Assembly: GCA_963692945.1 (NCBI GenBank) | Contig: OY843585.1 | Location: 1-32,000 of the forward strand | Direction: 5' to 3' | Length of the DNA stretch: 32,000 nt | DNA from: Bdellovibrionales bacterium | GTDB taxonomy: Bacteria; Bdellovibrionota; Bdellovibrionia; Bdellovibrionales; UBA1609 | Shown here: piece by piece, positions 11,119-32,000 of the stretch | How the letters are laid out: each line of letters opens with the position of its first letter | Numbering within the stretch: position 1 is the stretch's first letter | The notes under the pieces: generated by a model | Database searches by the model: none | What the model saw: the letters and a program-made list of their open reading frames with translations, nothing else | Told to the model about the DNA's origin: nothing | Program-made: the position numbers and the translations under genes

Positions 11119-12487
11119 ACTTAACACCTAAAAGTAACCGTGAAAGATCTCTATATTTACTAATTAAAGAAGTTCCATTTTCAATAGTTTCATCTGAAAA
11201 TCTAAACAAAACATCTCCAGAAATATAAACTTGAAAGTTAGGAGTCATATTAAAAAAAGCATCTAAAATAGTAGCATAAATTTGATTATCTAAAGCATAA
11301 TTGAGTCTAAAATTAAATTGCAATCCAGAAAATAAAGCCGCTGTCCAGTATTCCATAGACCAACTCAAGGCATGTTTCCAATCAAAACCTGTCCCAAAGA
11401 TAACTTCTAAATCTTCTGTAACAATATTACTCGATTCCACATCATTCTCACTCTCAAAATTTTTGATATACCCCAAAGTGAAAACAGTTTTTTCTACCTC
11501 TTTTATTTCCTCTTTAAAATACACTAAAAAACTTGTTATTAAACTAGGTTCAAAACTATCTGTAACCCAATCTTTTTTGATCGTTAATTTGTCAGGTCTT
11601 TCATAAAATAAAGAAGCAAATATAGAAAGATTATCATTTAGATCCATTTCTGATTCAATAGTAAATAAGTGATGCCTAACTGTACCGTAATCTAAACCTT
11701 TGACAGTTATTTTTGAGGAATCCGTTTCAGAAAGACTTATACCTCCAGTTTGCACAAAAAATTGCAGCTGATTTTTAGGCTTGTAAGTATAAGACAAAAA
11801 AATCTCTGAGTAAGACAATTTATGATAAACTTGAACGGCCAACATAGGTTGAAGGAAAGACAAGAAATCAAAAGATCGTAATTGATCCACATCCCATTTA
11901 ACATTTTTCAAACTAGCATTAGAAAAATAAGGATTCTCAGAAGTGACAACTCCATCTTTTATCTCTGGATAAATAATCACATCTGGTAAATAAAAATAAG
12001 AAAAATAGAAAGTAAGGGAAGTATTAGGAGAAGGGAAATAATCCAAATACACACCGGGAAGACTTGTTTGTAGAGGACGGAAGGCATCTAATAAATAACG
12101 AGGCTGCCACAGTCCTAAATTCCAATATCTATCTGATTCATTCCAAACAAAATCTCTAAAACCTAAAACAAGATTTAATTGATTTTTAACGACAGGCAAA
12201 ATAACAGAGAGTTCTCCAAAACGATAATAATGTTTTTTTTCAAAAAAAGAATAACGATAGCCAACATCTATATCAATTTTAGAGTTGTGATACTCCCATT
12301 TTCCACCGACAAAACTAGAGTATCTATTCTCAAAAAAGTAAGAAAAATGAAAGTCAAATTCTAAATAATTTTTTTGCTCCGTATCTTTAAAAAGCACCCA
12401 TGGATAAGATATTCCTATCTGTGGAATAAGCAAAAAAGCAATACAAAACCATTTTATAAAAACCTTATTTTTCATCTTTTTGACCAT
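11108..12487 (-). CDS. Predicted outer-membrane beta-barrel protein, family not recognised (module A)
   Basis: The signal peptide is within MVKKMKNKVFIKWFCIAFLLIPQIGIS. The composition is beta-strand rich and the C-terminus is ...LLLGVKYVF. It is a paralogue of 7502-8884. Confidence 0.8.
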   Translation of the reverse strand: MVKKMKNKVFIKWFCIAFLLIPQIGISYPWVLFKDTEQKNYLEFDFHFSYFFENRYSSFVGGKWEYHNSKIDIDVGYRYSFFEKKHYYRFGELSVILPVVKNQLNLVLGFRDFVWNESDRYWNLGLWQPRYLLDAFRPLQTSLPGVYLDYFPSPNTSLTFYFSYFYLPDVIIYPEIKDGVVTSENPYFSNASLKNVKWDVDQLRSFDFLSFLQPMLAVQVYHKLSYSEIFLSYTYKPKNQLQFFVQTGGISLSETDSSKITVKGLDYGTVRHHLFTIESEMDLNDNLSIFASLFYERPDKLTIKKDWVTDSFEPSLITSFLVYFKEEIKEVEKTVFTLGYIKNFESENDVESSNIVTEDLEVIFGTGFDWKHALSWSMEYWTAALFSGLQFNFRLNYALDNQIYATILDAFFNMTPNFQVYISGDVLFRFSDETIENGTSLISKYRDLSRLLLGVKYVF

Positions 12488-17387: not shown

Positions 17388-17975
17388 ATGAATATTATAC
17401 TAGCAAGTCAATCCCCCAACAGACAAAGCCTTTTAAAACAGGCTAATATAAAATTTCAAAGTTGGACACCAAATATAAAAGAGGAAAAATATCTGAATGA
17501 CAAAGATAACCCTCAACATATATGTCTTAAAATAGCTCAAGCAAAATCTTTAAAAGCCTCTAAAATTTATCATGGATCTATAATTATTGCCTCTGATCAA
17601 TTAGCCTACTTGGATGGAAAATTTTATGGAAAAGCTTTGAGTATTGAAAAAGCCTGCCAAACTCTATTAGATCTCCAAGGGAAAACTCACGACCTTATAA
17701 CAAGCCTCCATATGTGTTATAAAGAAAAAACTTTCTCTCATATCTCCGTAAGTAAAATGAGCATGAGACACTTAAACCTTAAACAAATTGAAAAATATGT
17801 ATCTCTAGATAAGCCTTTAAATTGTGCCGGTTCCTATCATATAGAATCTTTAGGTATTGGTCTTTTTGAAAAAATAGAAACAGATGACTTTAACTCTATT
17901 ATTGGATTACCTTTAACCGCTTTAATCAATCAATTGATTCTTTGGAAATACCCTTATCTTAATCAATCTCTATAA
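17388..17975 (+). CDS. maf: Maf-family nucleoside triphosphate pyrophosphatase
   Basis: MNIILASQSPNRQSLLKQ matches the Maf ILAS.SPRR..LL N-terminus. Length 195 aa. Confidence 0.9.
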   Translation: MNIILASQSPNRQSLLKQANIKFQSWTPNIKEEKYLNDKDNPQHICLKIAQAKSLKASKIYHGSIIIASDQLAYLDGKFYGKALSIEKACQTLLDLQGKTHDLITSLHMCYKEKTFSHISVSKMSMRHLNLKQIEKYVSLDKPLNCAGSYHIESLGIGLFEKIETDDFNSIIGLPLTALINQLILWKYPYLNQSL

Positions 17976-18349
17976 GCCCAAACCTCAACTTCTACAAGAA
18001 CAGATTTTGGTAAGGCCGATACCTCTACACAAGATCGTGCTGGTTTATGGTTAGAAAAATAAGTTTTATAAACTTTATTAAATGGTTCAAAATTTTTTAA
18101 GTCTGTCAGAAATACAAGAGATTTAACTACATGTTTTAAGGTCATTCCTTCTGAAGATAACACCGATTTAATATTGTCTAGAACTTGTTGGGTTTGAACA
18201 GAAACATCTTCTCCTACCACTTGTGCTGTCTCTGGATGAAGAGGTATTTGTCCAGAACAAACAAGCCAAGGTCCGATGCGAATCGCTTGCGAGTAAGGGC
18301 CAATAGGAATGGGAGCCTTTGAAGTACAAACTGATTTTAAAAATGTCAT
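17963..18349 (-). CDS. ridA: RidA/YjgF/L-PSP family reactive-intermediate deaminase
   Basis: APIPIGPYSQAIRIG at the N-terminus and SCVEVSALPKSVLVEVEVWA at the C-terminus. Length 128 aa. The start overlaps the upstream stop as ATGA. Confidence 0.9.
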   Translation of the reverse strand: MTFLKSVCTSKAPIPIGPYSQAIRIGPWLVCSGQIPLHPETAQVVGEDVSVQTQQVLDNIKSVLSSEGMTLKHVVKSLVFLTDLKNFEPFNKVYKTYFSNHKPARSCVEVSALPKSVLVEVEVWAYRD

Positions 18350-19527
18350 TTTACGTTTTTCTCACGAAAAATATTAAAATTTAATGGACGATAGTAAACG
18401 GTGTATTGATTATCTTGGACGATCGGTGATTTTTTATAATTGTAATATTTAAAGTCTTCACCAATATGAATAGACATTGTTTCAGCATTATAATACCAAC
18501 CCTCATGTGTATCATTTGGTATCTCATAATCATTGTATAGAACTCTTATTGTATCCACTAAAGGAACTTCTTCAATTAAAATCACCGGAACATAAAAAGA
18601 ACGTTCTATATCCTTTGATATAACAGTTAGTTTTTTTCCCCAACTCTCTTTATCACAAACAGAAAAAGCATGACCACTAGTCTGCTTAATAAAGTTATGA
18701 GCATGAGCTGGAAATGGAACAATCGCATGAATATTCTCCGAACAGTTATCTACATGATTCTTTGTTCTTTCTAGAGGTAAGACTCCATAAGCTTTGATTT
18801 GATCATCTCCTTTATGTTTAATAATTTCATTGAATTTACCTAATCCAACCCTCTCCCCTTCTTTAGTAATAGATACATTTGAAGAACCCTCAGAAAGTGA
18901 ATAATGAGCTTCAGTCATCTCTCCTAAAGCATCAGATACAAAAATGATAACTAGAAAATTTTTTTCACTAAAAAAATCTCTGGCAATATCTTTATCATTT
19001 TGTTTCATTAAAAAATCTAAAGCAGAGAAGTACCATTCGTATCCTGCATCATTATAACCGCTTACGCTATCTACACTCTTAGATAAAAGACAAGATATAC
19101 TTTCAAAGTTTACATCATTAGAATCTTGAGTTTTATATTTAAAGTAGTTTCCTACAGTCGTTTTATGAACAAATTTCTTAAAATCCTTGCAACTTTCTAA
19201 TAATTCATCAGTCGCTATGAAAAGAGGATGTCCATAAGAGGTGTTAAATGTCTTATAAGGAGACATTGTAGTTATAGCAAAATTATAATTGTAATAAGAA
19301 TGTTCTTTCATAATTGGAAGAAAGTACTGAAAATTCTTCACTATTGTTTTACGAAAATCACCTGTACTACCAGAAGTATCTAATACAAATAAAAAACTTA
19401 TATCTGAAAATCCAGCAACAGATGTAGAAATAATTTTTTTTAAAGGTTTCGCAATAGAGATGAGCTTAGGAGATGGCCCACAACCCACTAAAAACAATAC
19501 GAAAACTATACTAATAATTCTTTTCAT
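18346..19527 (-). CDS. von Willebrand factor A (vWA) domain lipoprotein; candidate CglB-like adhesin
   Basis: Canonical lipobox FLVGC/GPS. MIDAS motif FLFVLDTSGSTGDF (D.SGS), with a later beta-strand plus Asp at LVIIFVSDALGE. AAGGA lies 7 nt upstream of the ATG. Confidence 0.8.
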   Translation of the reverse strand: MKRIISIVFVLFLVGCGPSPKLISIAKPLKKIISTSVAGFSDISFLFVLDTSGSTGDFRKTIVKNFQYFLPIMKEHSYYNYNFAITTMSPYKTFNTSYGHPLFIATDELLESCKDFKKFVHKTTVGNYFKYKTQDSNDVNFESISCLLSKSVDSVSGYNDAGYEWYFSALDFLMKQNDKDIARDFFSEKNFLVIIFVSDALGEMTEAHYSLSEGSSNVSITKEGERVGLGKFNEIIKHKGDDQIKAYGVLPLERTKNHVDNCSENIHAIVPFPAHAHNFIKQTSGHAFSVCDKESWGKKLTVISKDIERSFYVPVILIEEVPLVDTIRVLYNDYEIPNDTHEGWYYNAETMSIHIGEDFKYYNYKKSPIVQDNQYTVYYRPLNFNIFREKNVK

Positions 19528-19545
19528 TTTTCATCCTTTTAAACA

Positions 19546-21090
19546 TCATAAAGTATAAGATTTTTTGGGACAAGCTTTTGAAAAAGAAGTCTGATAATCA
19601 CCAATTTCATCGCCCCAGATTTCTCTCGCATCAAAAGGAAAAGTAACCTCGTAACCAACCCCTTCTTTCAAATTAGAAATAACAGATTTCCAATTTGACG
19701 TAGGGAAAAGATTTTTTCGATTCCTATGATAACCATGAATGCGATAAAGAGCTTCCATTTCAATAAAATACATCTGACTTAAAGTTTCAGCAATTTGAGA
19801 AACTTCTTTTTGAAAAAATACTGAAATTTTTCTATCAATTTGCTTATCCAAATTTTTTACAAAATCATTGTATTGCTTTTCTAGAGGCTTGAATCCTTCC
19901 ACAGAAGACATCTCATTATTTGTAAATTTTTTTAGTAAAATGAGATTTTTTATGGAACGATTACTTTTTAACAAACTAGATAAATGTTTAAAAGACAATA
20001 ATTTATTATCTATAGAGTAAGACGCTAAAAGATCTGTTTTAACATCTTCAAAAAAATTCTTTTTTAGTGAATTTTTTAGATAACTCTGTCTTTTAGAAAA
20101 ATGCTCTTTAAAATAAGATAAAGAAGAATTGAGATTAGGGTAATCACAATTTTTTAATTGAGAAAGAGAAAGAATAAGAAACATACTTGGTGTCAACACA
20201 TCTTGCAAAGGAGGATAAGTAAAAGAAGAAACAGAGGAAAAAGACTGAGCATAATCACCTTTATTATAGTGAATCCAAGATTTTTCTTCCTGAGCTAATA
20301 ACCATTTAAAAGATAACTTTTTCACCTTATTGTAATAATAAACAGCAGACTCATACTCGCCTATCTCATTAAGTAATCTAGCAATAGTTAAATAAATTGT
20401 ATTTTTATGATTTAAATCTTCCGTTTGTTTAAGTAACCAAGCTAAAATCTTAGTGGCAGAATTCATATCGTTTTTTTTAATCAAATGACGAACTAGAGAC
20501 CATTCCAAATAATAATCATTATTTTTATCATGAACTGGAAGTTTTAAAAAATATTCTATCTGTTTTCTATCTTTAACAAGAGAGAACTCTTTTTTAGATC
20601 CTACTTTCAAAGCAATATCTTCATTAAAAAAATCAGTCCAATCTTTTGACCAAGTCCCTATAAAATAATTCCAAACATCTTGGTTAGAATTAAAATTTGT
20701 CCTCCATAAATTATAAATAATGGGATTAACTTTTTTAGGCTCTACTTCATTAAGGAGGTGATTTAAACCCAAAACTTGAAATCCATTTTTAAACATTAAA
20801 AAAGCATAGAGAGCCTTACCTGTAGAGGTTTTTGCAAAAGAAGTTTTTTGAAAAGAAGACGACCACAATTTTAAAGACTGACTATAATCTTTTTTTTCAA
20901 GAGCAATGTATAAGTTTTTATAGTTTTTTTCTAAATAGGACGGTAATAAAGAAACTACATCTTTTTGTAGATGCTTATCTAAAGTGAATTCAGAATCTTT
21001 AGTTTCCTTTTTTAATATATCCAATACACTTGCTTGTGCTTCACCCATAAAAAAGTTAGAAAATAAAAGAGAAATACAAAAAAGAATCAA
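19546..21090 (-). CDS. Secreted TPR-like repeat protein (GltC/GltE-like by context)
   Basis: TTG start overlapping the upstream TGA as TTGA, with AGGAG 7 nt upstream. Signal peptide MILFCISLLFSNFFMGEAQA/SV. TPR-like helices include IARLLNEIGEYESAVYYYNKVKKL and WIHYNKGDYAQSF. Confidence 0.75.
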   Translation of the reverse strand: MILFCISLLFSNFFMGEAQASVLDILKKETKDSEFTLDKHLQKDVVSLLPSYLEKNYKNLYIALEKKDYSQSLKLWSSSFQKTSFAKTSTGKALYAFLMFKNGFQVLGLNHLLNEVEPKKVNPIIYNLWRTNFNSNQDVWNYFIGTWSKDWTDFFNEDIALKVGSKKEFSLVKDRKQIEYFLKLPVHDKNNDYYLEWSLVRHLIKKNDMNSATKILAWLLKQTEDLNHKNTIYLTIARLLNEIGEYESAVYYYNKVKKLSFKWLLAQEEKSWIHYNKGDYAQSFSSVSSFTYPPLQDVLTPSMFLILSLSQLKNCDYPNLNSSLSYFKEHFSKRQSYLKNSLKKNFFEDVKTDLLASYSIDNKLLSFKHLSSLLKSNRSIKNLILLKKFTNNEMSSVEGFKPLEKQYNDFVKNLDKQIDRKISVFFQKEVSQIAETLSQMYFIEMEALYRIHGYHRNRKNLFPTSNWKSVISNLKEGVGYEVTFPFDAREIWGDEIGDYQTSFSKACPKKSYTL

Positions 21091-21863
21091 AATAAAACTC
21101 CTATTGAGACGTGACCTTTAGATAAGTAATTATTTATAACATCAAGTTTTTTGCCTACCTCATACGAATAATAAGAACCAGATAATCCTATTCTAGCACT
21201 CACTCGTTGACTCAACCAAAAAACCAAACCTCCTCCAACAGAAGCTGTCGGAATATTTTTTTCATCCAATCTAAGTAACTTTAAAACACCACCAGAAAAA
21301 AACAAATAAACATCAAAGTGTATGATTTTATTTAATACCGCTATTTTCCCATAAAAAGGAGACCAATCAAAACCTAAAGAATACTCTTGTTGTTGAGCAT
21401 ACTCTAACTCTAAAGGGTTTTGACCATAATTCAAAGTATCCTCTCCTTCTTTATTGATCTTGTTCAAAAAATAAGAGTATTTTAAATGGACACTCCAATA
21501 ATTACTTAAATAAAACCTATAAGTTACATCTAAAGAAGCCGTGTTCAAATAAGTAACACCTTTCATTACAGGGGAACCAACTAAGCTCAACTCAGATAAA
21601 AACCTCTTAGGTAATAACCGTTTTTGAACAACATTTAAACTAGACCTATACTCAAATTGAGAACTCATAATTTGTAAAGATTCAGAATTTTCTCCTAAAG
21701 ATTTAAATTCCTTTTCTTCTTTACTTTTTTGTTTTGTATAGTCTTGCTTTTTACTAAAACCATGAAAAGAAGTGAGGATGATTCCAAAAACAATACATTG
21801 TTTTAAAATAAAAAGTAAAAATATTTTTTGCTTTAATTTTATCATAACAAATACCCTTCTCAT
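21087..21863 (-). CDS. Small outer-membrane beta-barrel protein, GltA/GltB-like (myxobacterial-type OMP barrel)
   Basis: It has a signal peptide. VVQKRLLPKRFLSELSL...WSPFYGKIAVLNKIIHFDVYLFFSGG fits the ..PiYGK......hFD.Y..G.G pattern I recall for the OMP_myx_plus-type barrels. The C-terminus is HVSIGVLF. The start could instead be the ATG at 21845. Confidence 0.72.
   Translation of the reverse strand: MRRVFVMIKLKQKIFLLFILKQCIVFGIILTSFHGFSKKQDYTKQKSKEEKEFKSLGENSESLQIMSSQFEYRSSLNVVQKRLLPKRFLSELSLVGSPVMKGVTYLNTASLDVTYRFYLSNYWSVHLKYSYFLNKINKEGEDTLNYGQNPLELEYAQQQEYSLGFDWSPFYGKIAVLNKIIHFDVYLFFSGGVLKLLRLDEKNIPTASVGGGLVFWLSQRVSARIGLSGSYYSYEVGKKLDVINNYLSKGHVSIGVLF
21098..21102 (-). promoter_or_regulatory. 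Shine-Dalgarno site AGGAG supporting the TTG start at 21090
   Basis: The plus strand reads ctcct. A 7-nt spacer separates it from the TTG. Confidence 0.5.
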
Positions 21864-21871
21864 TTCCTCAT

Positions 21872-24800
21872 TTAGTGTAGTATAGCACCTGGCCGTGTTT
21901 TTCTAAAAGAATCTATATCCGATACATCCATTTCATCTGTAGTATGTATAAAAAAGACATCCTCTCTATTCGTTCTTAATGTAGAAACAATCACTCCATG
22001 TTCCTCTTTTTTAAATTCACATTTTTTAGAAATAGTACCATTTTCTCCATCCAATTGCGTAAAATTTATTTTCTCTTCACAATCACAAGGCCGCTTTACT
22101 CCATTAGAATCTGTACAAGTCAGATCAATAATGAAAGAATTTTTTTGGTTAAGATCCTCTATCTCTTCCGGAGGATTCTCATAATTATAAAACACTGTGC
22201 ATATTTTAACTTCTGATGATGCAGAATTCAAACAGTTCATAGATGGGGTTAAATTTAAAAAGAAATGACGACCACCTAAAGATATATCATATTTGCTTTC
22301 CATTTCCTTATACTGTATTTCTTGCGTTTTTTTATCTTTAAAAATTAAATAGTCTACCATAGAAAATGCACTGGTTTTTCTAAAAAGGTCATTCCTAACA
22401 TGAACCCTATTTTTATCAAATCCATATTTATAAAAAACATAGACAGGTTTACTAGTTTCAGAATTGAAACCCATTTTTACATTAAAAGTACACTCTTTTT
22501 CTAAGACCACTTTTTCAATAACACTCTTTGTTTCAAGTTCATGAACTGGCTCACAAGGACAGGATATTGATTCAAAAATATCTCCATAAACTTCTTCATT
22601 AGAAATATTTGTTTTTATACAATTAAAACCATTAGAACGGGTAATACTATAAGGTTCTAATTCAATATCAATAATATCCTTAAATTGTGTTATCTCTGTT
22701 TTTTCCGTGATATGAGTTAAATCTCTCTCTAATGGAAGCATTGAAAACAACCTAAAAGCATTGGTAGGGAATACATATTTGATTTTTACATTGTGTGATA
22801 AGTTAAAAAGGGTTTTATTAACTTTTTTTAGAGATTGATTACCTACCTCTTGCGTAGTATCTGCTGAAGCTGGTTCTACCCCTTGTGGTGTAGCTGGAGC
22901 TGGTTCTACCCCTTGTGGTGTAGCTGGAGCTGGTTCTACCCCTTGTGGTGTAGCTGAAGCTGGTTCTACCCCTTGTGGTGTAGCTGGAGCTGGTTCTACC
23001 CCTTGTGGTGTAGCTGGAGCTGGTTCTACCCCTTGTGGAATTAAACCCACCAAATGCCAAAATAAACCTACCTCTTGCGTAGTATCTGCTGAAGCTGGTT
23101 CTACCCCTTGTGGTGTAGCTGAAGCTGGTTCTACCTCTTGTGGTGTAGCTGAAGCGAGTTCAATAACTTCTATTTCCTGAGTGATTTCCATATCTTTTGA
23201 ATCTTTTTTGGACTGATTTTTGAAAAAAGATTGTATTCTAGGGAATGCATGAAGAACAAAAGGAATCTCTCTACCATTTTGAATACGCCCCTCTAATATC
23301 GTTGGTTCAAAAGAAACTAGCAGAGAATAAAAATTATTAAAAATACCATCCGTAATACCTTTCCGTAAATAGGTTTCATTATTTTTTACACCTAAAAATT
23401 TCTCATTTTTTACTTCATATTTAAAATTCCAAATGAAATCGTTATCATATGTTCTGCTAACCAAATCAAGGGATATAGGTGGAAACACATCTCCTCTTTG
23501 TGATGACAGTAAAGAAGATCCTTTCCGCGTTTGATTTACATCTCTCACATGAATCTCAAATGTATCACTAGAAATAAGATCCGAACTAAAAAAAATGAGA
23601 TGAATACCTGTATCAAGAGATTGAGGAGAAACACCTGAAACTAATGATTTTAAATATTTTGGCATTAAACGAAATTTCTTTTTCAACTGACTGTTTTCTA
23701 TAGGATATAAAACTGTATCATCTCCATTTGGTGCATAATACAAATCATACTCTTTCTCTCTAATGAAAACATCCCCATAAAGAACCTGAACATAACAATT
23801 ATCTCCCTCATCAAACTTATTTCTACTAAAATCACCATCCCAACAACGACCCTCTCTTCCATTGAAACCTATGTTTTTATATATAGATGTTGTTTTTCTA
23901 TCAAAAATAATCTTTTGCATGTCACCAGTAGCATGTTTATAAATAAGCTCATCTGGAAATTCATAATAAGTTTCATAAATGTCTGTATCTATACTTATAT
24001 CTTTATCCCCCATACCCTCTAATTCAACATAACAAATCGTCTTTCCATTTTCTGTTTCAATGAAACTATTAGAAGGACAATCTTTTTCTTCTTTTTTCTC
24101 ATAAATAGGTTTTTGTAGACGAAGATAAATAGATCTTTCAATTGGTTTGAAATCACTTTTTTGTTTGTATATAAGTTTTGAATCATATACGAATTTTTTC
24201 TTAAATTCGTCAATATTTTTTATAGGAGGACCAAATTTATAAACACCATCTTCAGCATCCGAAAAATAGTCATAAATTTCTCTATTTAATTTTAAATTGA
24301 TTTTTCCATCTTTAGGGATTTCATAAAAATTTCCATCCTCCATTTTTTCATAATCAAGAGTATTATATGTATATTTGACAATTTCAGGAATCTCATAAAC
24401 TTTTTCAACTTCTAAAAATAATTTTTTAGAAATAACAAAAGCAGGTTTTTTTAGATTGCTAAGATCTCTTAATTCAATAAAAAAAGGTATCTTTATTTTC
24501 CGAGTCTCTTGATATCCTACAAAAAATCTATCCGGCTTCCAAGTTATTACAAGTTCTCTTCTATCCTTATAGTAAACCCATTTAAAATCTTTATATAATT
24601 TGACTGTTCTCTCCGAAAATTTGACATCTATATCAAATGGAAAATCTTTATACAATGGTTTGATTTTAATAACATGTCCTGAAGTCTCTCCTTCTCTAAA
24701 TGGCAAAGTCAAATCTACCTTATTCTTAAAAGTCACCCCTACTGAATTAGAAGATAAAAAATTATCTTTAAAAACATTTTGATTATGAGGACCTGTATTA

Positions 24801-24910
24801 TAAATACCCTTTCTCATATTTTCTGAAATACCTTTTAAAGGGTCTTGACTGCAAGATATAAATACAAAGAAAATAAAAACTAAAAATACTTGTTTTGATA
24901 AATTGAACAC
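21872..24910 (-). CDS. Large Cys-rich lipoprotein with a central Pro-rich decapeptide repeat; no family recognised
   Basis: GTG start with AAGGAGG 6 nt upstream. Lipobox-like VFISC/SQD. There are 14 further Cys residues in pairs or clusters (ISCPCEP, RPCDCEE). The central array reads ATPQGVEPAP/S. Confidence 0.85.
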   Translation of the reverse strand: MFNLSKQVFLVFIFFVFISCSQDPLKGISENMRKGIYNTGPHNQNVFKDNFLSSNSVGVTFKNKVDLTLPFREGETSGHVIKIKPLYKDFPFDIDVKFSERTVKLYKDFKWVYYKDRRELVITWKPDRFFVGYQETRKIKIPFFIELRDLSNLKKPAFVISKKLFLEVEKVYEIPEIVKYTYNTLDYEKMEDGNFYEIPKDGKINLKLNREIYDYFSDAEDGVYKFGPPIKNIDEFKKKFVYDSKLIYKQKSDFKPIERSIYLRLQKPIYEKKEEKDCPSNSFIETENGKTICYVELEGMGDKDISIDTDIYETYYEFPDELIYKHATGDMQKIIFDRKTTSIYKNIGFNGREGRCWDGDFSRNKFDEGDNCYVQVLYGDVFIREKEYDLYYAPNGDDTVLYPIENSQLKKKFRLMPKYLKSLVSGVSPQSLDTGIHLIFFSSDLISSDTFEIHVRDVNQTRKGSSLLSSQRGDVFPPISLDLVSRTYDNDFIWNFKYEVKNEKFLGVKNNETYLRKGITDGIFNNFYSLLVSFEPTILEGRIQNGREIPFVLHAFPRIQSFFKNQSKKDSKDMEITQEIEVIELASATPQEVEPASATPQGVEPASADTTQEVGLFWHLVGLIPQGVEPAPATPQGVEPAPATPQGVEPASATPQGVEPAPATPQGVEPAPATPQGVEPASADTTQEVGNQSLKKVNKTLFNLSHNVKIKYVFPTNAFRLFSMLPLERDLTHITEKTEITQFKDIIDIELEPYSITRSNGFNCIKTNISNEEVYGDIFESISCPCEPVHELETKSVIEKVVLEKECTFNVKMGFNSETSKPVYVFYKYGFDKNRVHVRNDLFRKTSAFSMVDYLIFKDKKTQEIQYKEMESKYDISLGGRHFFLNLTPSMNCLNSASSEVKICTVFYNYENPPEEIEDLNQKNSFIIDLTCTDSNGVKRPCDCEEKINFTQLDGENGTISKKCEFKKEEHGVIVSTLRTNREDVFFIHTTDEMDVSDIDSFRKTRPGAILH
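22841..23155 (-). repeat. Near-perfect 30-nt in-frame tandem repeat in two blocks, with a duplicated 56-nt flank
   Basis: Block 1 has 30-nt units starting at 22869, 22899, 22929, 22959 and 22989, plus a partial unit at 23019-23038. They are identical except for one G/A (Pro/Ser) position. Block 2 has units at 23094 and 23124. The segment 22841-22896 is identical to 23066-23121 apart from that G/A site. The blocks are separated by a unique 27 nt (23039-23065) encoding LFWHLVGLI. Confidence 0.95.
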
Positions 24911-24916
24911 CTTTTT

Positions 24917-24923
24917 CCTCCTT
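24917..24923 (-). promoter_or_regulatory. Shine-Dalgarno site AAGGAGG supporting the GTG start at 24910
   Basis: The plus strand reads cctcctt. A 6-nt spacer separates it from the GTG. It overlaps the stop codon of the upstream gene. Confidence 0.6.
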
Positions 24924-26106
24924 ATGCTCCTAAAGATTTCAAATCAAAAGGAAAAACAACTTTAATAAGCCCCTCTTGATTAAGATTAATGTTAAACTTA
25001 ATTTTATTTATTATACTTAAAATACAATCTGATATTTTTTGAGATCTTATTTTTGAAGTTTTATGAACTTTAGAAGATACAACTCTTCCTCGTTTATTTA
25101 TTAAAAATTGAGATACAAAGATACCATCTAAATTAGAATCAAATTTTAAAGCTTGATCATAACAAGAATGAATTTCCCCACTTTTTTGCAAAATTTGACG
25201 CTCTATCAAACTAAAATCAAAACCTCCACCTTGAAGACTCATAGATGTTGTTTCTGAAAGGTCTTCCGTTCCACCAGAACCTACCAATGTCAACTTACCA
25301 TAACCAGCCTTACCACCTCCAGGAGTATTGCCTTTAGTGCCATAACCTCCACCACCTTTAATATTACCACCAGAACCTAAAGCCGCTGTAATCATTCCCT
25401 TGCTATAAATAGAAGATTGCACTCCGCCACTTCCACTGTTTGCAGACAATGCCCTTAAACCAGGTCCATCAGAAGTAACAGAAGCTCCTAAATTTAATCC
25501 ACCTTGTTGGTTTGATTTATCTTTAGATAAACTTCCTAAAGCTGCTAAAGCACCCATTCGTTTCAAAGATTTTTTAACCTTTTTCTTCTTCACTTTAATC
25601 TTACTATCACGAATAGAACTACTATTACTAGCAATAACTACTTTCTCTGGAGTAATAATAGCTGGAGGTTTAACAATTTTCACAACATGTTGCTCTATTT
25701 TTTGTTCACTTTGTTTCGGACTAACATTTTTATAAACCCATACAAGACCTGTAGTAAAAACCAAACAGAACCCACAAACAGAACCAATAGATAACAAAAA
25801 ATCTTTTTGATCTTTCACAGATAGAGCTGGAGATAAAGGGACATTGACCACCTCGTCAACCAACTCTAAGTAATAATCTGAAAAAATAGGTGCTTTATTT
25901 TGCTCTAAACTTTTAACTGTGAATTCCTGTAAAACTTTAACCTTCTTTTTCTCTTGTTCAGAAGAAGGAACATCAGATGCAAAATCTAACCTCCCTGTAT
26001 TTTTTTTATAAAGAAGATAAAATTTATTTGTAGAGCAATGAAAAACTCTTATCACTTCATTATTTTTATTCTTTAAAACTAAATTCTTCATTACAAGCTT
26101 TCCCAT
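24922..26106 (-). CDS. Bitopic TonB-like protein with an AgmX(GltG)/PglI-type C-terminal domain and a Gly-rich linker
   Basis: A cytoplasmic N-domain is followed by one TM segment (LLSIGSVCGFCLVFTTGLVWVY), a Lys-rich patch and a Gly-rich stretch (GGNIKGGGGYGTKGNTPGGGKAGYG). The C-terminus reads IHSCYDQALKFDSNLDGIFVSQFLINKRGRVV...ISDCILSIINKIKF...LIKVVFPFDL. An alternative start is the ATG at 26091, which forms a TAATG junction with the upstream stop. Confidence 0.75.
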   Translation of the reverse strand: MGKLVMKNLVLKNKNNEVIRVFHCSTNKFYLLYKKNTGRLDFASDVPSSEQEKKKVKVLQEFTVKSLEQNKAPIFSDYYLELVDEVVNVPLSPALSVKDQKDFLLSIGSVCGFCLVFTTGLVWVYKNVSPKQSEQKIEQHVVKIVKPPAIITPEKVVIASNSSSIRDSKIKVKKKKVKKSLKRMGALAALGSLSKDKSNQQGGLNLGASVTSDGPGLRALSANSGSGGVQSSIYSKGMITAALGSGGNIKGGGGYGTKGNTPGGGKAGYGKLTLVGSGGTEDLSETTSMSLQGGGFDFSLIERQILQKSGEIHSCYDQALKFDSNLDGIFVSQFLINKRGRVVSSKVHKTSKIRSQKISDCILSIINKIKFNINLNQEGLIKVVFPFDLKSLGA

Positions 26107-26375
26107 TCAAAAATTCTATCTCTTACACTATGCTTTATAGAAAAAACTTCACTTTCAACTATACTTTCACCTTCTATTTTTAAATCCTTTGATTCTTCTG
26201 AGAAACGTTTTTTACCTTGAATCAAAAGAGGACGAAAAGAATAAGATGTTTTTGAAATTGAGGATTTAACTGACTGTTTTGAGCTTACAACATCCCCCTC
26301 TTTTTTTGCAAAAACAAAATGAGGAAGAAATAAAAAATAAACAAGATATAAAAGAAATAATTTTTTTGCACTCAT
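26091..26375 (-). CDS. Small secreted protein, unknown function (positional analogue of GltF at best)
   Basis: Signal peptide MSAKKLFLLYLVYFLFLPHFVFA/KK. Length 94 aa. The start is coupled to the upstream stop as TAATG (26373-26377). No motif recognised. Confidence 0.5.
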   Translation of the reverse strand: MSAKKLFLLYLVYFLFLPHFVFAKKEGDVVSSKQSVKSSISKTSYSFRPLLIQGKKRFSEESKDLKIEGESIVESEVFSIKHSVRDRIFEWESL

Positions 26376-29300
26376 TATAACTCCACTCTACCCTTTCTAG
26401 ATTTATTGATTCTTTCTATTCTATTCATAAGATAATAAGACATTACATCATCCTTTTTAAATTTTCCCATCTTTAAAAGATTTTTAAGATAAACCTTATT
26501 GAAAGGATTAGACCTTAAACCAGTATAAATATCTTTTGTCTTATTATTGGGACTAAGCATTATAGGCGAACTCTTTTGACTAGAAAATTTTATAAGATTT
26601 AACAAGGTAGATATCTTTGCTTTTTGATTCTCATCTTTAATTAACGGGCTCAATTGATCTATTTCCCATTTCAATAGACCATGGAAAACTTTATGATTTT
26701 TAGCAACTTCTATATATTTATCTATATAATTTTGAGCAAGCAATTTATCTATTTCTTCCTTTAATTTAACAGCACGGACTTTATAAGACATGATTTGGTC
26801 TTCCAGAAGTTTTGTATATTGCCTTTGCTCTTCTAATGTCAAATTTTCAGGCATAGGCAGTTTCAAAATAGATTCATAAAAACGAACCAATTCATCATAG
26901 ACCCTAGAAAAGGCTACAAATTGTGAAGGCCAATCTTTCATTTCAACAGATAGCTCGGCCTGTTTCTCAAGTTGGCTAATAAGACCCTTATAAGTTTTAA
27001 TTGATCGTGTTAAATGTTTTACTGATAAAGAAAACGAACGAACTTTTTGATAACTTTCATTAAAAGATTCAATAAAAGACTTCCGTTTTAAAAACTTGCT
27101 TATAGAAGAATCCTTCATAAAAGAAAGATCAGCAAAAGATTTTATAAAAAAAACATCTAATGCCTGATTATCTAGCTTTAACACCATATAAGAAAGATCA
27201 TCTGGTTTTTTAGCAAAGTAAGAAGCATATTTTTTTAGGAACCTTTTTTTATCTTTTTTAGAAGCTTTATCTATGATATGCCTAACTATACCAAAACTCT
27301 TATCCGATGTAGGATATCTTTCAATGTATTTTTCATAGTAAGAAATATAATCTTTATTAGCCAATTCTGCTAAGTAGGACAATCGCAAATAATGCCCCTC
27401 GCTTGTTTCTTTAGGCTTAAGCATCTTAACGAGTTTTAATGTTTCTTTAAAATCAAAACGAATCTCTGCTAACCATAATTTCCAAGTTAAAACCACCTTA
27501 TAATCTTCTTTAGATAAAGATTTCATATTCATCATTTGAGATATAATTTCATCCATTTCTTTTAACTTAAGAAGCTCCTTAGCTAAAAGAAGTTTATTCA
27601 TATAGTATTTCAATTTCTCTTCTTTATTCAAATAAGACCTATTGACAGAATTAAGAATCTTCCAAGCCTTTAAAACATTCCTATCCGAAGAAGGTTTTAA
27701 AGGATAACTTGAAAAATCTTGATTAGATAATAAATTTTTCACCATATTAAAAACAGCAGTGTAGTGAATTCTTATAAATTCTTTATTCAATGGAAACTTT
27801 TTATAAAAAAGATTAGACCACTCAGCCATAAGAACATCTTTATCTTCTAGAAAATTTAAAGAAGATAAAGCCAAATGAGCTGATTTTAAAGCAAGGGCTT
27901 GCATTTTTTTATCGGGTTTTTCTATTTTTAGAAGAGCTAAATCTTTAAATAGATTTGCAGCTTGTTTGTATTTTTTATCTTCATAAATAAGATAGGCTTT
28001 TTGATATTTACTTTGGTATATAATCTTTTCATTAGATCCATTTTTCAAATAGAAATCATAAGATTGATATCTTCTGGTTTTACTTTTAGAAAGCTCAGCC
28101 ACCTCCATTTGAAAAATATTAACCTGCTCTAAATCCTTTTTAATATTTTTAATTGCTTTTACATCAGAAGATTGTTTCATTTTGATATGCAAAGCTTTCG
28201 CTGATTTTTGGAATAAATCTTGAGACAATTCATACTTCTTTAATTCTTTAGAAAGAAAAGCCGATTTAACTAACATATCAAATTCATTAGGATAGAAAGT
28301 GTTGTAAGTTTTATAAAGAGAAAGCAAGTAAGGTTTTAATTTTTTATCTTTCTCAGACCGCCTATGCAGTTCTTTCACATATCTTTTTTGTTGTTTATAT
28401 AAGCTTGCACAAATTTCTTTAGGACAATTATCAATTGTTTTTTGTAAAGCAAATAATTTTTCAATGACTTGACCCGTCCTTAAAATCCAACCCTTATCAT
28501 GTATTACAAAATGGTTATCAACAATGGATACATAAGCCCTTATTTGATTGAATAGAGATGGATTTTTTCCTAGATAAACATTCCAAACTTTATTAGAAAA
28601 TTTCCCTCGTCCAATACGATTTAAATCTTTGGCCAAATCAAAAAGTCTTTGATTCCTAGCTTCTATTGTATTTGCTTGTTTATCATCTTTATCAAAATGA
28701 TAGAGAAATTGAAGCCGTTTATCTGTGAGTTCACTACGAGAATAAAGAACAATCAATTCCTGTTGAAGTTTTTTCTTTAAAGAATCTTCTATTTCTGTAC
28801 GAACCCCTTTCTTATAGAGGTCTGATTTAAGGAATGCTTCTAAAAAATCAACCGATTTATTATAAGAAAATAGATTGTATAAACTCCAAATTTTACGATA
28901 ATGAGAACGAAATTCCCAAGGCGTCTTCCCTCGTTTAAGAACTTCGCTAAAAGCCTTTAAAGCAAGAGAATACCTATAAGATTTAAAATAAATTTCACCA
29001 AGATTAAAATAAGATTTTACCACAAAACTATCTTTTACATTAAGTTTTATGATCTGCTTTAAATAAGTTACAGATCGCGAGTCCTCTTCCATCAAGCTAT
29101 GAAGGTAAGCCATTTGAAAAAGAGAGTGAGAATAAAGAATGGGATGCTTACTTTTAATTGTAACCCCTATTTGCCGATAAAGAGATAGAGACCTTCTTGC
29201 ATCTCTAGTTCCCAAAACTAAACAATTTTTACAAATTTTATGATATTTTTGAGACAGTCTATCTTCTGCTCTCAAAGATAAAATATGAGCCAATCGCAAA

Positions 29301-29464
29301 GCCATTGGTTTCTTAGAAAAGTCATGGGAATTCGTGGTTCGGTAAATATGTTCCAGTTTTTTTATAAGATAATCTCTTGAAATGTCTTCCGTAGATTCTT
29401 TAGAATCTGCTAGTGAAACTCCGATAAAGAAACTTAAAAAAATCAAAAAATATTTCTTCAACAC
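26375..29464 (-). CDS. Large secreted TPR-repeat protein (GltD/AgmU-like by context)
   Basis: GTG start 4 nt after GGGGAG. Signal peptide MLKKYFLIFLSFFIGVSLA/DS. Many TPR-like helix pairs, for example YFNLGEIYFKSYRYSLALKAFSEVLK and KAYLIYEDKKYKQAANLFKDLA. Length 1029 aa. Confidence 0.85.
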   Translation of the reverse strand: MLKKYFLIFLSFFIGVSLADSKESTEDISRDYLIKKLEHIYRTTNSHDFSKKPMALRLAHILSLRAEDRLSQKYHKICKNCLVLGTRDARRSLSLYRQIGVTIKSKHPILYSHSLFQMAYLHSLMEEDSRSVTYLKQIIKLNVKDSFVVKSYFNLGEIYFKSYRYSLALKAFSEVLKRGKTPWEFRSHYRKIWSLYNLFSYNKSVDFLEAFLKSDLYKKGVRTEIEDSLKKKLQQELIVLYSRSELTDKRLQFLYHFDKDDKQANTIEARNQRLFDLAKDLNRIGRGKFSNKVWNVYLGKNPSLFNQIRAYVSIVDNHFVIHDKGWILRTGQVIEKLFALQKTIDNCPKEICASLYKQQKRYVKELHRRSEKDKKLKPYLLSLYKTYNTFYPNEFDMLVKSAFLSKELKKYELSQDLFQKSAKALHIKMKQSSDVKAIKNIKKDLEQVNIFQMEVAELSKSKTRRYQSYDFYLKNGSNEKIIYQSKYQKAYLIYEDKKYKQAANLFKDLALLKIEKPDKKMQALALKSAHLALSSLNFLEDKDVLMAEWSNLFYKKFPLNKEFIRIHYTAVFNMVKNLLSNQDFSSYPLKPSSDRNVLKAWKILNSVNRSYLNKEEKLKYYMNKLLLAKELLKLKEMDEIISQMMNMKSLSKEDYKVVLTWKLWLAEIRFDFKETLKLVKMLKPKETSEGHYLRLSYLAELANKDYISYYEKYIERYPTSDKSFGIVRHIIDKASKKDKKRFLKKYASYFAKKPDDLSYMVLKLDNQALDVFFIKSFADLSFMKDSSISKFLKRKSFIESFNESYQKVRSFSLSVKHLTRSIKTYKGLISQLEKQAELSVEMKDWPSQFVAFSRVYDELVRFYESILKLPMPENLTLEEQRQYTKLLEDQIMSYKVRAVKLKEEIDKLLAQNYIDKYIEVAKNHKVFHGLLKWEIDQLSPLIKDENQKAKISTLLNLIKFSSQKSSPIMLSPNNKTKDIYTGLRSNPFNKVYLKNLLKMGKFKKDDVMSYYLMNRIERINKSRKGRVEL

Positions 29465-29465
29465 T

Positions 29466-29960
29466 CTACTCCCCTAAAACTGCAAATTTAATTTCACTAA
29501 ATCCAGCATGACTACAAGCTTGTATAATAGAACTCAATTGACTGTACTTAATTTTTTTATCGGCTTGAATAGTAATTGTTTCCAATTGACCAGGATCATT
29601 ATTATGAAAATTTTGAACAAGTGATTTTTTTAAATCAATTAGAAAGGATACCAAGTTAGATTCTTCTATTTGCCTTTCTTCTACAAAATAACCACTTTCT
29701 TTAATTTGAATAATAGAATATCTATCCAGTCTTTCAAGCGTAGAAGCCTTTGGAAGTTCTATTTCAGCATTAACATAAGTCATCTCACCAGTATTGGAAA
29801 AAAACATAAGAAGATAGACAACCAAAATAGAGAAAGCATCAATAAGAGATGTTAACATTAAAGTTGCTCCAATTTTTTTCTTTTGTTTTTTAATTTCCTT
29901 AGTATTTAACAAAGAAGATCCTGCTACAAAACTTTGATTTAAAATAGAATCTGATGACAT
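29466..29960 (-). CDS. ExbD/TolR-family protein (AglQ/AglS-like) that retains the TM aspartate
   Basis: MLTSLIDAFSILVVYLLMFF...EIELPKAS aligns with the ExbD segment VTPFIDVMLVLLIIFM...VNLPAS. Confidence 0.85.
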   Translation of the reverse strand: MSSDSILNQSFVAGSSLLNTKEIKKQKKKIGATLMLTSLIDAFSILVVYLLMFFSNTGEMTYVNAEIELPKASTLERLDRYSIIQIKESGYFVEERQIEESNLVSFLIDLKKSLVQNFHNNDPGQLETITIQADKKIKYSQLSSIIQACSHAGFSEIKFAVLGE

Positions 29961-29989
29961 AATATTACCTTCTTTAAACTTACAACTCT

Positions 29990-30460
29990 CTAAATAGGTG
30001 AAACGCCTAAACTAAAAACACCTGACTGACGAACACCATCCATAATTTTTATAATATCTTCATAAATAATATCTGACTTAGGAAGAATAAAAGCCTGATT
30101 CAAATCTGGAATTTGTTTTTTCACAGACAAGACATACTTTTTAAAATCTTTATGATTAAATTCTTTTTCTAGCTTTTGAATATCTTTAACTTTTTGAGAA
30201 TTTATAATTTTTTGAGATATATACTTTTTACCTATTTTAGTTTTAATTAAAATTCTTTTCTTGGATTCTAAATGAATCCAAAGAGAAGGTTTATTCTTCT
30301 CAGAGACCTCACTAGTATCTCCACCCATAACCTGTTTCATAGTCAAAGAACCAACTTGATACCAAGCCACAGTCACTAACAAAAAACAAATACAAACCGA
30401 TAACAGAGAAATAAAGGGAGTTAAATCCAACTGGTAATCGTAATCATCTTTTCTTGCCAC
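29990..30460 (-). CDS. ExbD/TolR-family protein (AglQ/AglS-like) with the TM aspartate replaced by Ser
   Basis: GTG start with AAGGAG 5 nt upstream. LDLTPFISLLSVCICFLLV aligns with the ExbD segment INVTPFIDVMLVLLIIFMV. Confidence 0.8.
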   Translation of the reverse strand: MARKDDYDYQLDLTPFISLLSVCICFLLVTVAWYQVGSLTMKQVMGGDTSEVSEKNKPSLWIHLESKKRILIKTKIGKKYISQKIINSQKVKDIQKLEKEFNHKDFKKYVLSVKKQIPDLNQAFILPKSDIIYEDIIKIMDGVRQSGVFSLGVSPI

Positions 30461-30465
30461 TTTAT

Positions 30466-30471
30466 CTCCTT
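30466..30471 (-). promoter_or_regulatory. Shine-Dalgarno site AAGGAG supporting the GTG start at 30460
   Basis: The plus strand reads ctcctt. A 5-nt spacer separates it from the GTG. Confidence 0.6.
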
Positions 30472-30481
30472 ATGTTACTCT

Positions 30482-31153
30482 CTACTTCCCTGCTTCTAAT
30501 TTTTTCTCAAATAATGTTTGATATTTATAACTAAGCAGATTAAAAATCTTTAAAGCTCCTTGAGTTAAATCTTCCTGTAAAGCATTAGAACGATTTTGTA
30601 ATACAGCAAACATAACCAAAGCAGGTATGGCCATAATCAATCCATAAGCGGTTGTATTCATCGCTTCAGACACACCAGAAGATAGCAAAGTTGCCTTTTC
30701 TGCAGGGTTAGCATAAGTCACAGCAGAGAAGGCTTTAATCATACCCACGATAGTCCCCAATAAACCTGTTAATGTTCCTACATTACCTAACATAACTAGA
30801 AAAGATGTTCTTTTATCTAAAGCCGCTGTTTCCACAAGTAAAACTTCATCCATTTTTCCTTGAATTTCCTCACGACCACCACAATCCAAAGCCGCCTGCG
30901 TTCCCATTTGAATCGCTAAAGCAAGGGGTTGTTTTTCATAATCTCTTTCTGTCTGTTGAATAACAGAGGACAAATCCCCTTTGCGTATAAATTCTGAAAA
31001 ACCCTCAGCATATTTTTTTTGCGTTTCTTTTCTCCTATGAAAAAGAAAAAGACATCTATCTACAATAATAATTACAGAAATAATTTGAAAGACCAAAATA
31101 GCCCACATCCAAATTCCACCGTTTTGAAAAGCTAAAATAATTTGTTCTATCAT
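30482..31153 (-). CDS. MotA/TolQ/ExbB-family proton channel protein (AglR-like by context)
   Basis: Three TM segments. The signature GNVGTLTGLLGTIVGMIKAF is followed by NTTAYGLIMAIPALVMFAVLQNR. Confidence 0.92.
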   Translation of the reverse strand: MIEQIILAFQNGGIWMWAILVFQIISVIIIVDRCLFLFHRRKETQKKYAEGFSEFIRKGDLSSVIQQTERDYEKQPLALAIQMGTQAALDCGGREEIQGKMDEVLLVETAALDKRTSFLVMLGNVGTLTGLLGTIVGMIKAFSAVTYANPAEKATLLSSGVSEAMNTTAYGLIMAIPALVMFAVLQNRSNALQEDLTQGALKIFNLLSYKYQTLFEKKLEAGK

Positions 31154-31158
31154 TCTTT

Positions 31159-31164
31159 CTCCTT
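31159..31164 (-). promoter_or_regulatory. Shine-Dalgarno site AAGGAG of the first gene of the locus
   Basis: The plus strand reads ctcctt. A 5-nt spacer separates it from the ATG at 31153. Confidence 0.6.
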
Positions 31165-31658
31165 TTCTATTTGTAAGATATTAAATTGAATTGAGGTTTC
31201 ATATTTGATTCTAAATTTATCATAAAATCCCTAGTAGTGCATTACAATAAGCTCATAATACAAAGATGACTCATAGACGAATGTGCTAAAAAGAAATCAA
31301 AAAATGATACTTGAGACTGAAAGAAAAATAAAAACTTCATAAATTAAAGGTTTTCTATAATGAAAAACTTAAATTATATTAAATGCTCTAGTTATCTTAA
31401 ATAAAACATCTCCTTATAATAGTTCAAAATATTTTATCTCAACTAAAAAGTTAAGATACTTTTACAACTCGTAAGATCATTTCAAATTTACAAATCCATT
31501 TCAATACAAAATTTAAGAGGAAAAGACCTCTTACAAATTAAAAAAACAACTTCAAACTGATAAGATTGAATTCTCTGAGAAACAAACTCTTAGTTTGCTC
31601 TCATTGCAAGAAAGATCATTGAATTAGAAATTTTTATTTAAAAAAATAATTTTGTTAT

Positions 31659-32000
31659 CTAAGCTATTAAAGACATTTTTGACTTATCCGTTGTAAGAAC
31701 AGGTAGTTTGACAAGTACTTTTGTTCCCTGAGAAGAACTTATAATATTAATCTCACCTTTATGAGCTTTCACAACTTTTAAAACATAAGCCAAACCAACA
31801 CCACCAATACCCATTTTTTTACTAAACAGTGGGTCAAAAAGATTCTTTTGATCCTTTTGCTCTATACCATGACCATTATCCAAAAACTCCAAAACAATCT
31901 TATCCACCTCTTCATAAACTTCGATATTTAACTTTGGATGATTCTCATTTTTAAGGGCTTGAAAAGAATTTTCAATAATATTTTCAATAGCTATTTCCAG
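31659..32000 (-). CDS. Sensor histidine kinase, C-terminal HATPase domain (5-prime end lies beyond the window)
   Basis: The frame is open to nt 32000 (LEIAIENIIENSFQAL... N-box). G1 box is FLDNGHGI, followed by F.P.F as LFDPLFSKK. G2 box is GIGGVGLAYV. The ATG at 31907 in the ORF track is internal. Confidence 0.85.
   Translation of the reverse strand: MEIAIENIIENSFQALKNENHPKLNIEVYEEVDKIVLEFLDNGHGIEQKDQKNLFDPLFSKKMGIGGVGLAYVLKVVKAHKGEINIISSSQGTKVLVKLPVLTTDKSKMSLIA

Follow-up and report, generated by a model that had tools for sequence, protein, structure and literature searches.

Single-locus Agl/Glt-type gene block in a Bdellovibrionales bacterium: a probable trans-envelope machine with a candidate MIDAS adhesin

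A 32,000-nucleotide stretch of contig OY843585.1 (assembly GCA_963692945.1, Bdellovibrionales bacterium), hereafter called the window, carries a tightly packed run of minus-strand genes, and the question was raised of what kind of envelope system these genes encode. The original prediction, made from the DNA letters, had read the run as a complete, compact gliding or focal-adhesion machine of the Agl/Glt type. Based on the analyses reported here, it was concluded that the block is probably a Bdellovibrionota-type 'expanded core' Agl/Glt trans-envelope machine, homologous to the focal-adhesion gliding apparatus of Myxococcus. By sequence comparison, eight of the ten envelope genes have homology to an Agl/Glt-type machine, and the block is collinear with the Bdellovibrio type of cluster and conserved as a unit. 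The word "complete" had to be dropped, as GltE/H/I/J/K are missing from the locus and a single barrel is present.

Eleven consecutive minus-strand open reading frames (ORFs) were verified between positions 31153 and 17963 of the window, whose GC content is ~30%. They lie exactly where they had been placed and comprise ten envelope genes followed by a coupled ridA. With the start codons of the ORF caller, the gaps between neighbouring genes ranged from -16 to +29 nt, and the overlap junctions TAATG (26373-26377), TTGA (21087-21090) and ATGA (18346-18349), all claimed beforehand, were found on the minus strand. The -16 nt overlap holds for those starts but disappears if the GltG-like gene starts at 26091 (Met6), as it does in its relatives and probably does here, which gives another TAATG junction, at 26089-26093. 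For the barrel, Met7 (coordinate 21845) is the probable start. A signal peptide or a lipobox was readable on the 1029-, 94-, 1012- (FISC), 258-, 514- and 393-amino-acid (LVGC) products. The ten envelope genes are as follows.

30482..31153, minus strand: AglR-like MotA/TolQ/ExbB proton channel, 223 amino acids (PF01618, 85.6 bits)
29990..30460, minus strand: ExbD/TolR paralogue 1, 156 amino acids (PF02472, 36.2 bits)
29466..29960, minus strand: ExbD/TolR paralogue 2, 164 amino acids (PF02472, 54.8 bits)
26375..29464, minus strand: secreted helical-repeat scaffold in the GltD position, 1029 amino acids (signal peptide, weak TPR matches)
26091..26375, minus strand: secreted protein in the GltF position, 94 amino acids (signal peptide; place conserved in five related loci)
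24922..26106, minus strand: GltG-like bitopic protein, 394 amino acids (NF033768, 56.2 bits, cut-off 40)
21872..24910, minus strand: clade-specific lipoprotein, 1012 amino acids (lipobox FISC)
21087..21863, minus strand: GltA/GltB-type outer-membrane beta-barrel (OMP_myx_plus), 258 amino acids (TIGR04565, 71.1 bits, cut-off 60)
19546..21090, minus strand: GltC-like secreted TPR-like scaffold, 514 amino acids (NF033756 GltC, E 9e-12)
18346..19527, minus strand: lipoprotein with a MIDAS/vWA domain (MIDAS, an adhesion site that depends on a metal ion), candidate surface adhesin, 393 amino acids (lipobox LVGC; hhalign; AlphaFold2)

The block is not peculiar to the window. Within the length that each covers, five related loci (L001, L002, L003, L004 and L011) have identical gene content and gene order, with ridA last. 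L003 and L004 extend to the motor end and contain all ten envelope genes and ridA, whereas L001 and L002 break off inside the second ExbD gene and L011 inside that of the small protein; in L003 the flanks on both sides are unrelated to those of the window. L004 was found by a profile search of genome contigs with a trimmed barrel alignment, and a metagenome scan with the same alignment gave no match. The identity to the window was 71-75% for the motor channel (L003 and L004 only), 33-72% for the GltD-, GltG- and GltC-like proteins and the barrel, 29-48% for the MIDAS lipoprotein and 21-40% for the 1012-amino-acid lipoprotein. Such a gradient, with the motor most conserved, the scaffolds in between and the two lipoproteins least conserved, is the pattern that would be expected if both lipoproteins face outward. 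The Agl/Glt family matches of the window proteins recurred in the relatives, where the genes of the block mostly have no Pfam domain and no name in the source. No TonB-dependent receptor or Bat gene was present at the five orthologous loci, and a Bat/aerotolerance reading was rejected on gene content; the absence of such a linkage agrees with the original prediction.

The closest described cluster type is that of Bdellovibrio. Luciano et al. reported in 2011 that several phyla have 'core complexes' encoded at one locus (aglRQS, gltD, E, G, C) and that Bdellovibrio has four single-locus 'expanded core' Agl/Glt clusters (PMC3169522). In Table S3 of that work, Bd1474 is GltC, Bd1475 the barrel, Bd1476 GltG, Bd1477 GltF, Bd1478 GltD and Bd1479-1481 AglS/Q/R; Bd2369-2376 and Bd0828-0838 are listed as well, and Bdellovibrio has no GltH-K (PMC3169522). 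Already in 2008 Bd1483 was called a 'protein in gliding motility cluster', and transposon insertions in Bd1481 (aglR) and in Bd1483 both lowered biofilm predation (Medina et al., PMC2277423). These two reports make the compact single-locus layout, candidate adhesin included, an already known feature of Bdellovibrionota. Hence, the contrast that had been drawn with the scattered loci of Myxococcus xanthus is correct, though it is no novelty.

Five genomic contexts of the MIDAS lipoprotein family were sampled from Bdellovibrio, Bacteriovorax and related metagenomic contigs. All five start with the lipoprotein gene followed by PilZ/GYF, MotA, ExbD and ExbD genes, and on the four contigs of sufficient length these are followed by genes for a TPR protein of ~1235 amino acids, a small protein of 75-89, a protein of ~488, the barrel and a protein of ~710 amino acids. 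The B. bacteriovorus proteins of this locus, which agree with Bd1474-1483 in size and order, matched GltG (146 bits), AgmX/PglI (107 bits), OMP_myx_plus (92 bits) and GltC (67 bits), with a weak CglF/GltF match. Every family of the window clade matched its positional counterpart and no other (BLASTP; hhalign 92-99.8% for seven families), the exceptions being the 94- and 1012-amino-acid proteins. Thus, the Bd1483-Bd1474 cluster shares with the window the order AglR, two ExbD/TolR, GltD-like, small secreted protein, GltG-like, barrel and GltC-like, and a MIDAS/vWA lipoprotein gene within the same co-directional block, with pairwise identities of 21-36%. The two types differ in that the adhesin gene stands at the tail of the block in the window and at its head in the Bd1483-Bd1474 cluster, and the PilZ/GYF gene of the latter is absent from the covered parts of the six window-clade loci. 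In addition, the window has an extra lipoprotein of ~1000 amino acids between the GltG-like gene and the barrel, a small protein unrelated in sequence to that of Bd1483-Bd1474, GltD, GltG and GltC counterparts that are shorter by 100-200 amino acids, and ridA coupled at the end of the block. By homology and gene order, the locus of the window clade is a rearranged cluster of the Bd1483-1474 type.

Further, the single components were analyzed. The motor consists of one MotA/TolQ/ExbB gene and two adjacent ExbD/TolR genes, which is the composition of an AglRQS-type stator, and the Pfam scores listed above bear out the predicted channel and its two paralogous partners. The best-scoring models for the motor proteins were those of TolQ/TolR, and the 223-amino-acid channel aligned with the family in the Bd1481 position with an hhalign probability of 99.8% (E 4e-29). 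The two ExbD proteins are not equivalent: paralogue 1 lacks the canonical transmembrane Asp (PFISLL), whereas paralogue 2 keeps it (LIDAF). Both BLASTP and hhalign paired paralogue 1 with the first ExbD only of the Bdellovibrio-type loci and paralogue 2 with the second only. This one-Asp asymmetry is common to the window clade and the Bdellovibrio-type loci (the window, L003-L006, L009 and L010 were compared) and suggests a heteromeric stator with one protonatable type of subunit.

The GltG-like protein is predicted to have a cytoplasmic N-terminus, one transmembrane helix at ~103-125, a linker of ~170 residues that is first Lys-rich and then Gly/Ser-rich (the latter part ~110 residues), and an AgmX/PglI (TonB-CTD-like) domain at 299-389. 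Its C-terminus had been assigned to the AgmX/PglI type and not to TonB_C, and so it was found: NF033768 scored above its cut-off (56.2 bits against 40), and neither Pfam nor NCBIfam gave a TonB_C match. The motif CY..AL...L.G / C / VVFPF, quoted in support of that assignment, is present. The protein also gave partial matches to the GltG and GltJ equivalog models (GltG 54.6 bits, cut-off 650) and aligned with the Bd1476-position family at an hhalign probability of 95.7%.

The two large periplasmic proteins had been called TPR proteins. Their standing as secreted scaffolds with Glt links held, but the repeats themselves are weak in both: Pfam TPR reached E 0.004 in the 1029-amino-acid protein, and TPR_21 scored 24.3 bits in the 514-amino-acid protein, below the cut-off of 25.5. 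The larger scaffold aligned with the Bd1478-position family (hhalign 96.5%, E 7e-10, 422 columns) and had no direct match to a GltD model; the GltD-like proteins of the relatives weakly matched YbgF/CpoB. In the smaller scaffold, the GltC match covers residues 227-347 (~120 residues) at 44.5 bits, far under the equivalog cut-off of 450; the same match recurs in the relatives' proteins at this position, and the Bd1474-position family was recovered at an hhalign probability of 93.6%. The barrel carries the WSPFYGK...HFDVY motif and the terminal Phe reported for it, and aligned with the Bd1475-position family at 92.3%. The Glt relationship that had been expected of the barrel and of the 514-amino-acid protein was thereby borne out by TIGR04565 and GltC, respectively.

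The 393-amino-acid lipoprotein was the most difficult to place. Alone or with its three closest relatives it gave no match in Pfam, NCBIfam or PDB sequence searches, and NF052240 (equivalog cut-off 700 bits) was not matched even at E<=10. A word-indexed search returned 3 relatives, while an exhaustive profile search returned 572, of which 34 at E<=1e-30. One relative showed a weak match to the CglD vWA region (E 0.093), and a 61-sequence profile gave vWA matches in PDB below the threshold only. When 30 more distant relatives were examined, every one matched NF052240 'MIDAS family adhesin' and the CglD vWA region, and 13 of the 30 matched Pfam VWA; the window subfamily aligned with this NF052240-matching set at an hhalign probability of 100% (E 1.4e-53, 336 columns). 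An AlphaFold2 model built from a 120-sequence alignment had a pLDDT score (the predicted value of the local distance difference test) of 77.8 and a predicted template modelling score of 0.75; a model from a 4-sequence alignment (pLDDT 47) was not used. Foldseek retrieved 129 PDB matches at E<=0.001, the top ones being integrin beta subunits (E ~1e-8), with the SpaC pilus adhesin also among them. Thus, the label of vWA lipoprotein is correct by profile alignment and predicted structure, to which the direct sequence searches were blind.

The model carries N- and C-terminal strands, and the integrin beta match is the betaI domain within the hybrid domain. In integrin beta and SpaC, flanking segments build a beta domain into which a MIDAS domain is set, and the same inserted-MIDAS architecture has been described for Bd0875 and Bd1483 (PMC11003981). 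The predicted fold of the window lipoprotein therefore resembles the integrin beta headpiece. The proposed MIDAS residues are D50, S52, S54, T86/T87 and D199. Among 61 sequences, D50, S52, E164 and D199 do not vary and S54 hardly does; T86/T87 is invariant in the four closest sequences, and VTT is the family-wide consensus in a conserved 'TT' strand. Bd0875 and Bd1483 share with the window protein the lipobox, the MIDAS domain between beta-rich segments and the DxSxS...T...D pattern. As judged from profiles and the model, these Bdellovibrio MIDAS lipoproteins are its nearest known relatives. The window protein itself misses NF052240 and falls into a divergent subfamily, represented by 34 sequences at E<=1e-30. 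The MIDAS motif of Bd0875 is required for prey invasion, and the site of action of the protein is the predator-prey junction (Tyson et al. 2024, PMC11003981). It was also noted that the window subfamily has an insertion at ~95-145 with two conserved Cys (C113 and C146) that is missing in the broader family; by its position, it could cap the MIDAS site in the manner of the Bd0875-specific 'cap'.

The two proteins that could not be placed initially are still without a family. The 94-amino-acid protein had no Pfam or NCBIfam match and no similarity to the 82-amino-acid protein of the Bdellovibrio loci (hhalign 1.8%), so that it is GltF-like by position only. The 1012-amino-acid lipoprotein family had no match in Pfam, NCBIfam or PDB, was assigned no fold, and had no counterpart in the Bdellovibrio-type loci by BLASTP or hhalign. 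It had been described as Cys-rich, which is a modest property (15 Cys, 1.5%), but 12 of these residues are invariant in the alignment with the five relatives. Its gene is the fastest-evolving of the block, and the protein is probably a second surface-exposed component of the machine. The gene contains a 30-nt tandem repeat at 22863-23038 (5.9 copies) and 23088-23155 (2.3 copies), 97% identical, which encodes PQGVEPA(P/S)AT units. As the whole tract is missing from all five related loci and thus occurs in the window only, it appears to be a recent, possibly length-variable expansion of a linker.

The Agl-Glt focal-adhesion gliding system of M. xanthus (aglRQS, gltA-K, cglB) shares with the window a TolQR/ExbBD-type stator driven by the proton motive force, an AgmX/PglI C-terminus, a GltC-like region, an OMP_myx_plus barrel, a vWA/MIDAS lipoprotein adhesin and a large periplasmic scaffold. 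The M. xanthus genes are distributed over at least four loci and those of the window lie in one. M. xanthus needs three barrels, the window locus has one, and the window proteins miss all the M. xanthus-type equivalog cut-offs by a wide margin. The adhesins also differ in composition, with 17 Cys in the 416 residues of CglB and 5 in the 393 residues of the window protein, one of which is the lipobox Cys.

We proposed the following mechanism for the Agl/Glt-type machine. The AglR-like channel and the two non-equivalent ExbD/TolR proteins, one with a transmembrane Asp, would form a proton-driven stator in the inner membrane that acts on the GltG-like bitopic protein. The Gly/Ser-rich linker of ~110 residues of the latter may span the periplasm, with the AgmX/PglI domain docking onto the large GltD-like scaffold, and the GltC-like scaffold would join this periplasmic module to the GltA/B-type barrel. 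The barrel may in turn hold or expose the lipoprotein, whose integrin-beta-like MIDAS/vWA head would bind a substratum, host or prey surface through its metal-dependent site. The output would be a surface-coupled force used for gliding, for regulated adhesion, or for both, and the 94-amino-acid protein and the ~1000-residue Cys-containing lipoprotein would be clade-specific parts of the same machine. The roles of these two are guesses, because no relatives are detectable outside the clade. The protein contacts were drawn by analogy with an AlphaFold model of the M. xanthus machine (PMC11761067). Surface exposure, dependence on the proton motive force and cellular output are what we infer, and the choice between gliding and adhesion or invasion is likewise argued by analogy.

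Several points weigh against the assignment. None of the ten genes was found to correspond to GltE, H, I, J or K, only one barrel is present, and all of these parts are essential in M. xanthus. The score of the GltC match is a tenth of the equivalog cut-off, and the GltD link runs through the Bdellovibrio proteins. The 94- and 1012-amino-acid proteins have no detectable relatives beyond the clade. Elsewhere, 'core complexes' that share this ancestry serve functions other than motility or have none assigned, as with Nfs in sporulation and those of gammaproteobacteria (PMC3169522), and a 2026 review still regards the gliding machinery of Bdellovibrio as unidentified (PMC13104615). In the organism of the window, the assignment is made from the genes.

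Rather less likely is a use of the same machine solely to attach to the surface of a host or prey cell or to enter it, as a motor-tensioned adhesin device that takes no part in locomotion. The nearest named relative is a flagellum-less sponge-derived genome of ~1.6 Mb, judged an unlikely predator, an ankyrin-repeat protein adjoins the locus in L003, the related Bd0875 works at the predator-prey junction during invasion, and the two lipoproteins evolve fastest, all of which would suit such a device. However, gliding-like behaviour in biofilms has been linked to Bd1483-1474, the cluster type closest to the window, and deletion of Bd1483 caused no invasion defect; gliding and adhesion are also inseparable from sequence alone. 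A non-motility envelope role, for example in moving or assembling a surface polymer, as Nfs does, or in a Tol-Pal-like tethering of the outer membrane in a reduced genome, was considered improbable. In non-gliding bacteria, the genes of group B (aglRQS, gltD, E, G, C) do occur as one operon with no assigned function, and the Glt paralogue Nfs serves sporulation in M. xanthus (PMC3169522); the TolQ/TolR scores of the motor and the weak YbgF/CpoB matches of the GltD-like relatives point the same way. This role is nevertheless less likely because the locus has a barrel and a MIDAS lipoprotein adhesin, which mark motility-type clusters. Moreover, the block is collinear with the Bdellovibrio cluster and not with the gammaproteobacterial core, and its neighbourhood has no genes for polysaccharides or a spore coat.

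A classical TonB-ExbB-ExbD uptake system or a Tol-Pal system, which would account for the MotA/ExbB gene, the two ExbD genes and the bitopic TonB-like protein, is extremely improbable and was rejected on gene content. These systems share with the window a homologous stator and a TonB-CTD-like transducer domain, but that domain is of the AgmX/PglI type here, above its cut-off, and TonB_C is absent from the 394-amino-acid protein. In line with the earlier claim that the window lacks receptors and TolA/TolB/Pal, Pfam and NCBIfam gave no match to a TonB-dependent receptor, Plug, TolA, TolB, Pal or CpoB on the scanned ORFs of the window, and none appeared in the L001-L003 gene tables. The Agl/Glt-type machine was thus retained as the probable identity of the block.

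The block, most of whose genes lack Pfam domains or names in the relatives, thereby receives a sound annotation, and the 1012-amino-acid lipoprotein becomes a new and testable candidate component. The Bdellovibrio-type Agl/Glt cluster and its MIDAS lipoprotein have outlasted genome reduction in a lineage akin to a sponge symbiont without flagella. The four clusters of Bdellovibrio are partly redundant, and a lineage with a compact conserved cluster could be a simpler system in which to find the essential parts and the target of the adhesin.

L004 belongs to SP5OBV1, a metagenome-assembled genome from the sponge Lamellodysidea (1.59 Mb, 29.8% GC); the contig of the window's genome measures 1.56 Mb. 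SP5OBV1 was assigned to 'Oligoflexia; Bdellovibrionales', possibly as a new order; according to the sponge paper it has no flagellar or fatty-acid synthesis genes, is unlikely to be a predator and is credited with twitching motility only. A rather unlikely but tentatively advanced view is that of a flagellum-less, ~1.6 Mb and probably host-associated lineage with a single self-contained Agl/Glt machine, in which the ~1000-amino-acid lipoprotein is a new component of the outer membrane or the surface that either replaces GltK/H/E-type parts or is the host-binding partner of the MIDAS adhesin. In that case, the ten genes would be the smallest natural set for a motor-coupled adhesion or gliding device of this class, in a phylum whose gliding machinery is still called unidentified. 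Among the other loci, a multi-ankyrin-repeat protein (L003 1-44 and upstream) is encoded directly upstream of the L003 cluster and hints at a eukaryote-associated lifestyle. The assembly of L002 (GCA_029782575.1), with contig numbering above 200,000, is probably a host genome assembly.

The flanks of the block contain the following features.

31154..31658 (505 nt), minus strand: upstream intergenic region with a terminator-like hairpin and promoter-like hexamers
17963..18349, minus strand: ridA, Rid family deaminase (PF01042, 137 bits; ATGA overlap with the adhesin gene)

The hairpin at 31533-31514 lies downstream of a histidine-kinase gene fragment, and the hexamers at 31400-31373 and 31247-31219 are consensus matches only. 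Promoter-like sites in this region were not commoner than in shuffled sequence, the terminator scan likewise performed no better, and an Rfam scan of the window gave no match. The fragment is the 3' end of a histidine-kinase gene (HATPase_c) at 31659-31907, directly upstream of the locus and reaching past the window end; in the Bdellovibrio-type loci L007 and L009, a CHASE2 histidine kinase and a sigma-54 response regulator are encoded upstream of the adhesin gene. At the other end, ridA directly follows the vWA gene in the window and in all five related loci, including L003 with both flanks different, and it converges on and overlaps maf downstream. A functional tie of ridA to the envelope machine is not apparent.

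Elsewhere in the window, a block of four minus-strand genes at 6247-12487 encodes products of 459, 747, 460 and 421 amino acids with no Pfam match. The 459- and 460-amino-acid products are distantly paralogous to each other (24% identity, E 7e-10), and each ends in YVF like outer-membrane barrels, and the 421-amino-acid product has a lipobox-like N-terminus. This uncharacterised envelope system is conserved beside nrdAB in L001 and L002. A secreted protein of 504 amino acids, encoded at 268-1782 on the minus strand and likewise without a Pfam match, has a highly acidic C-terminal repeat (EEVEEDENLEE...).

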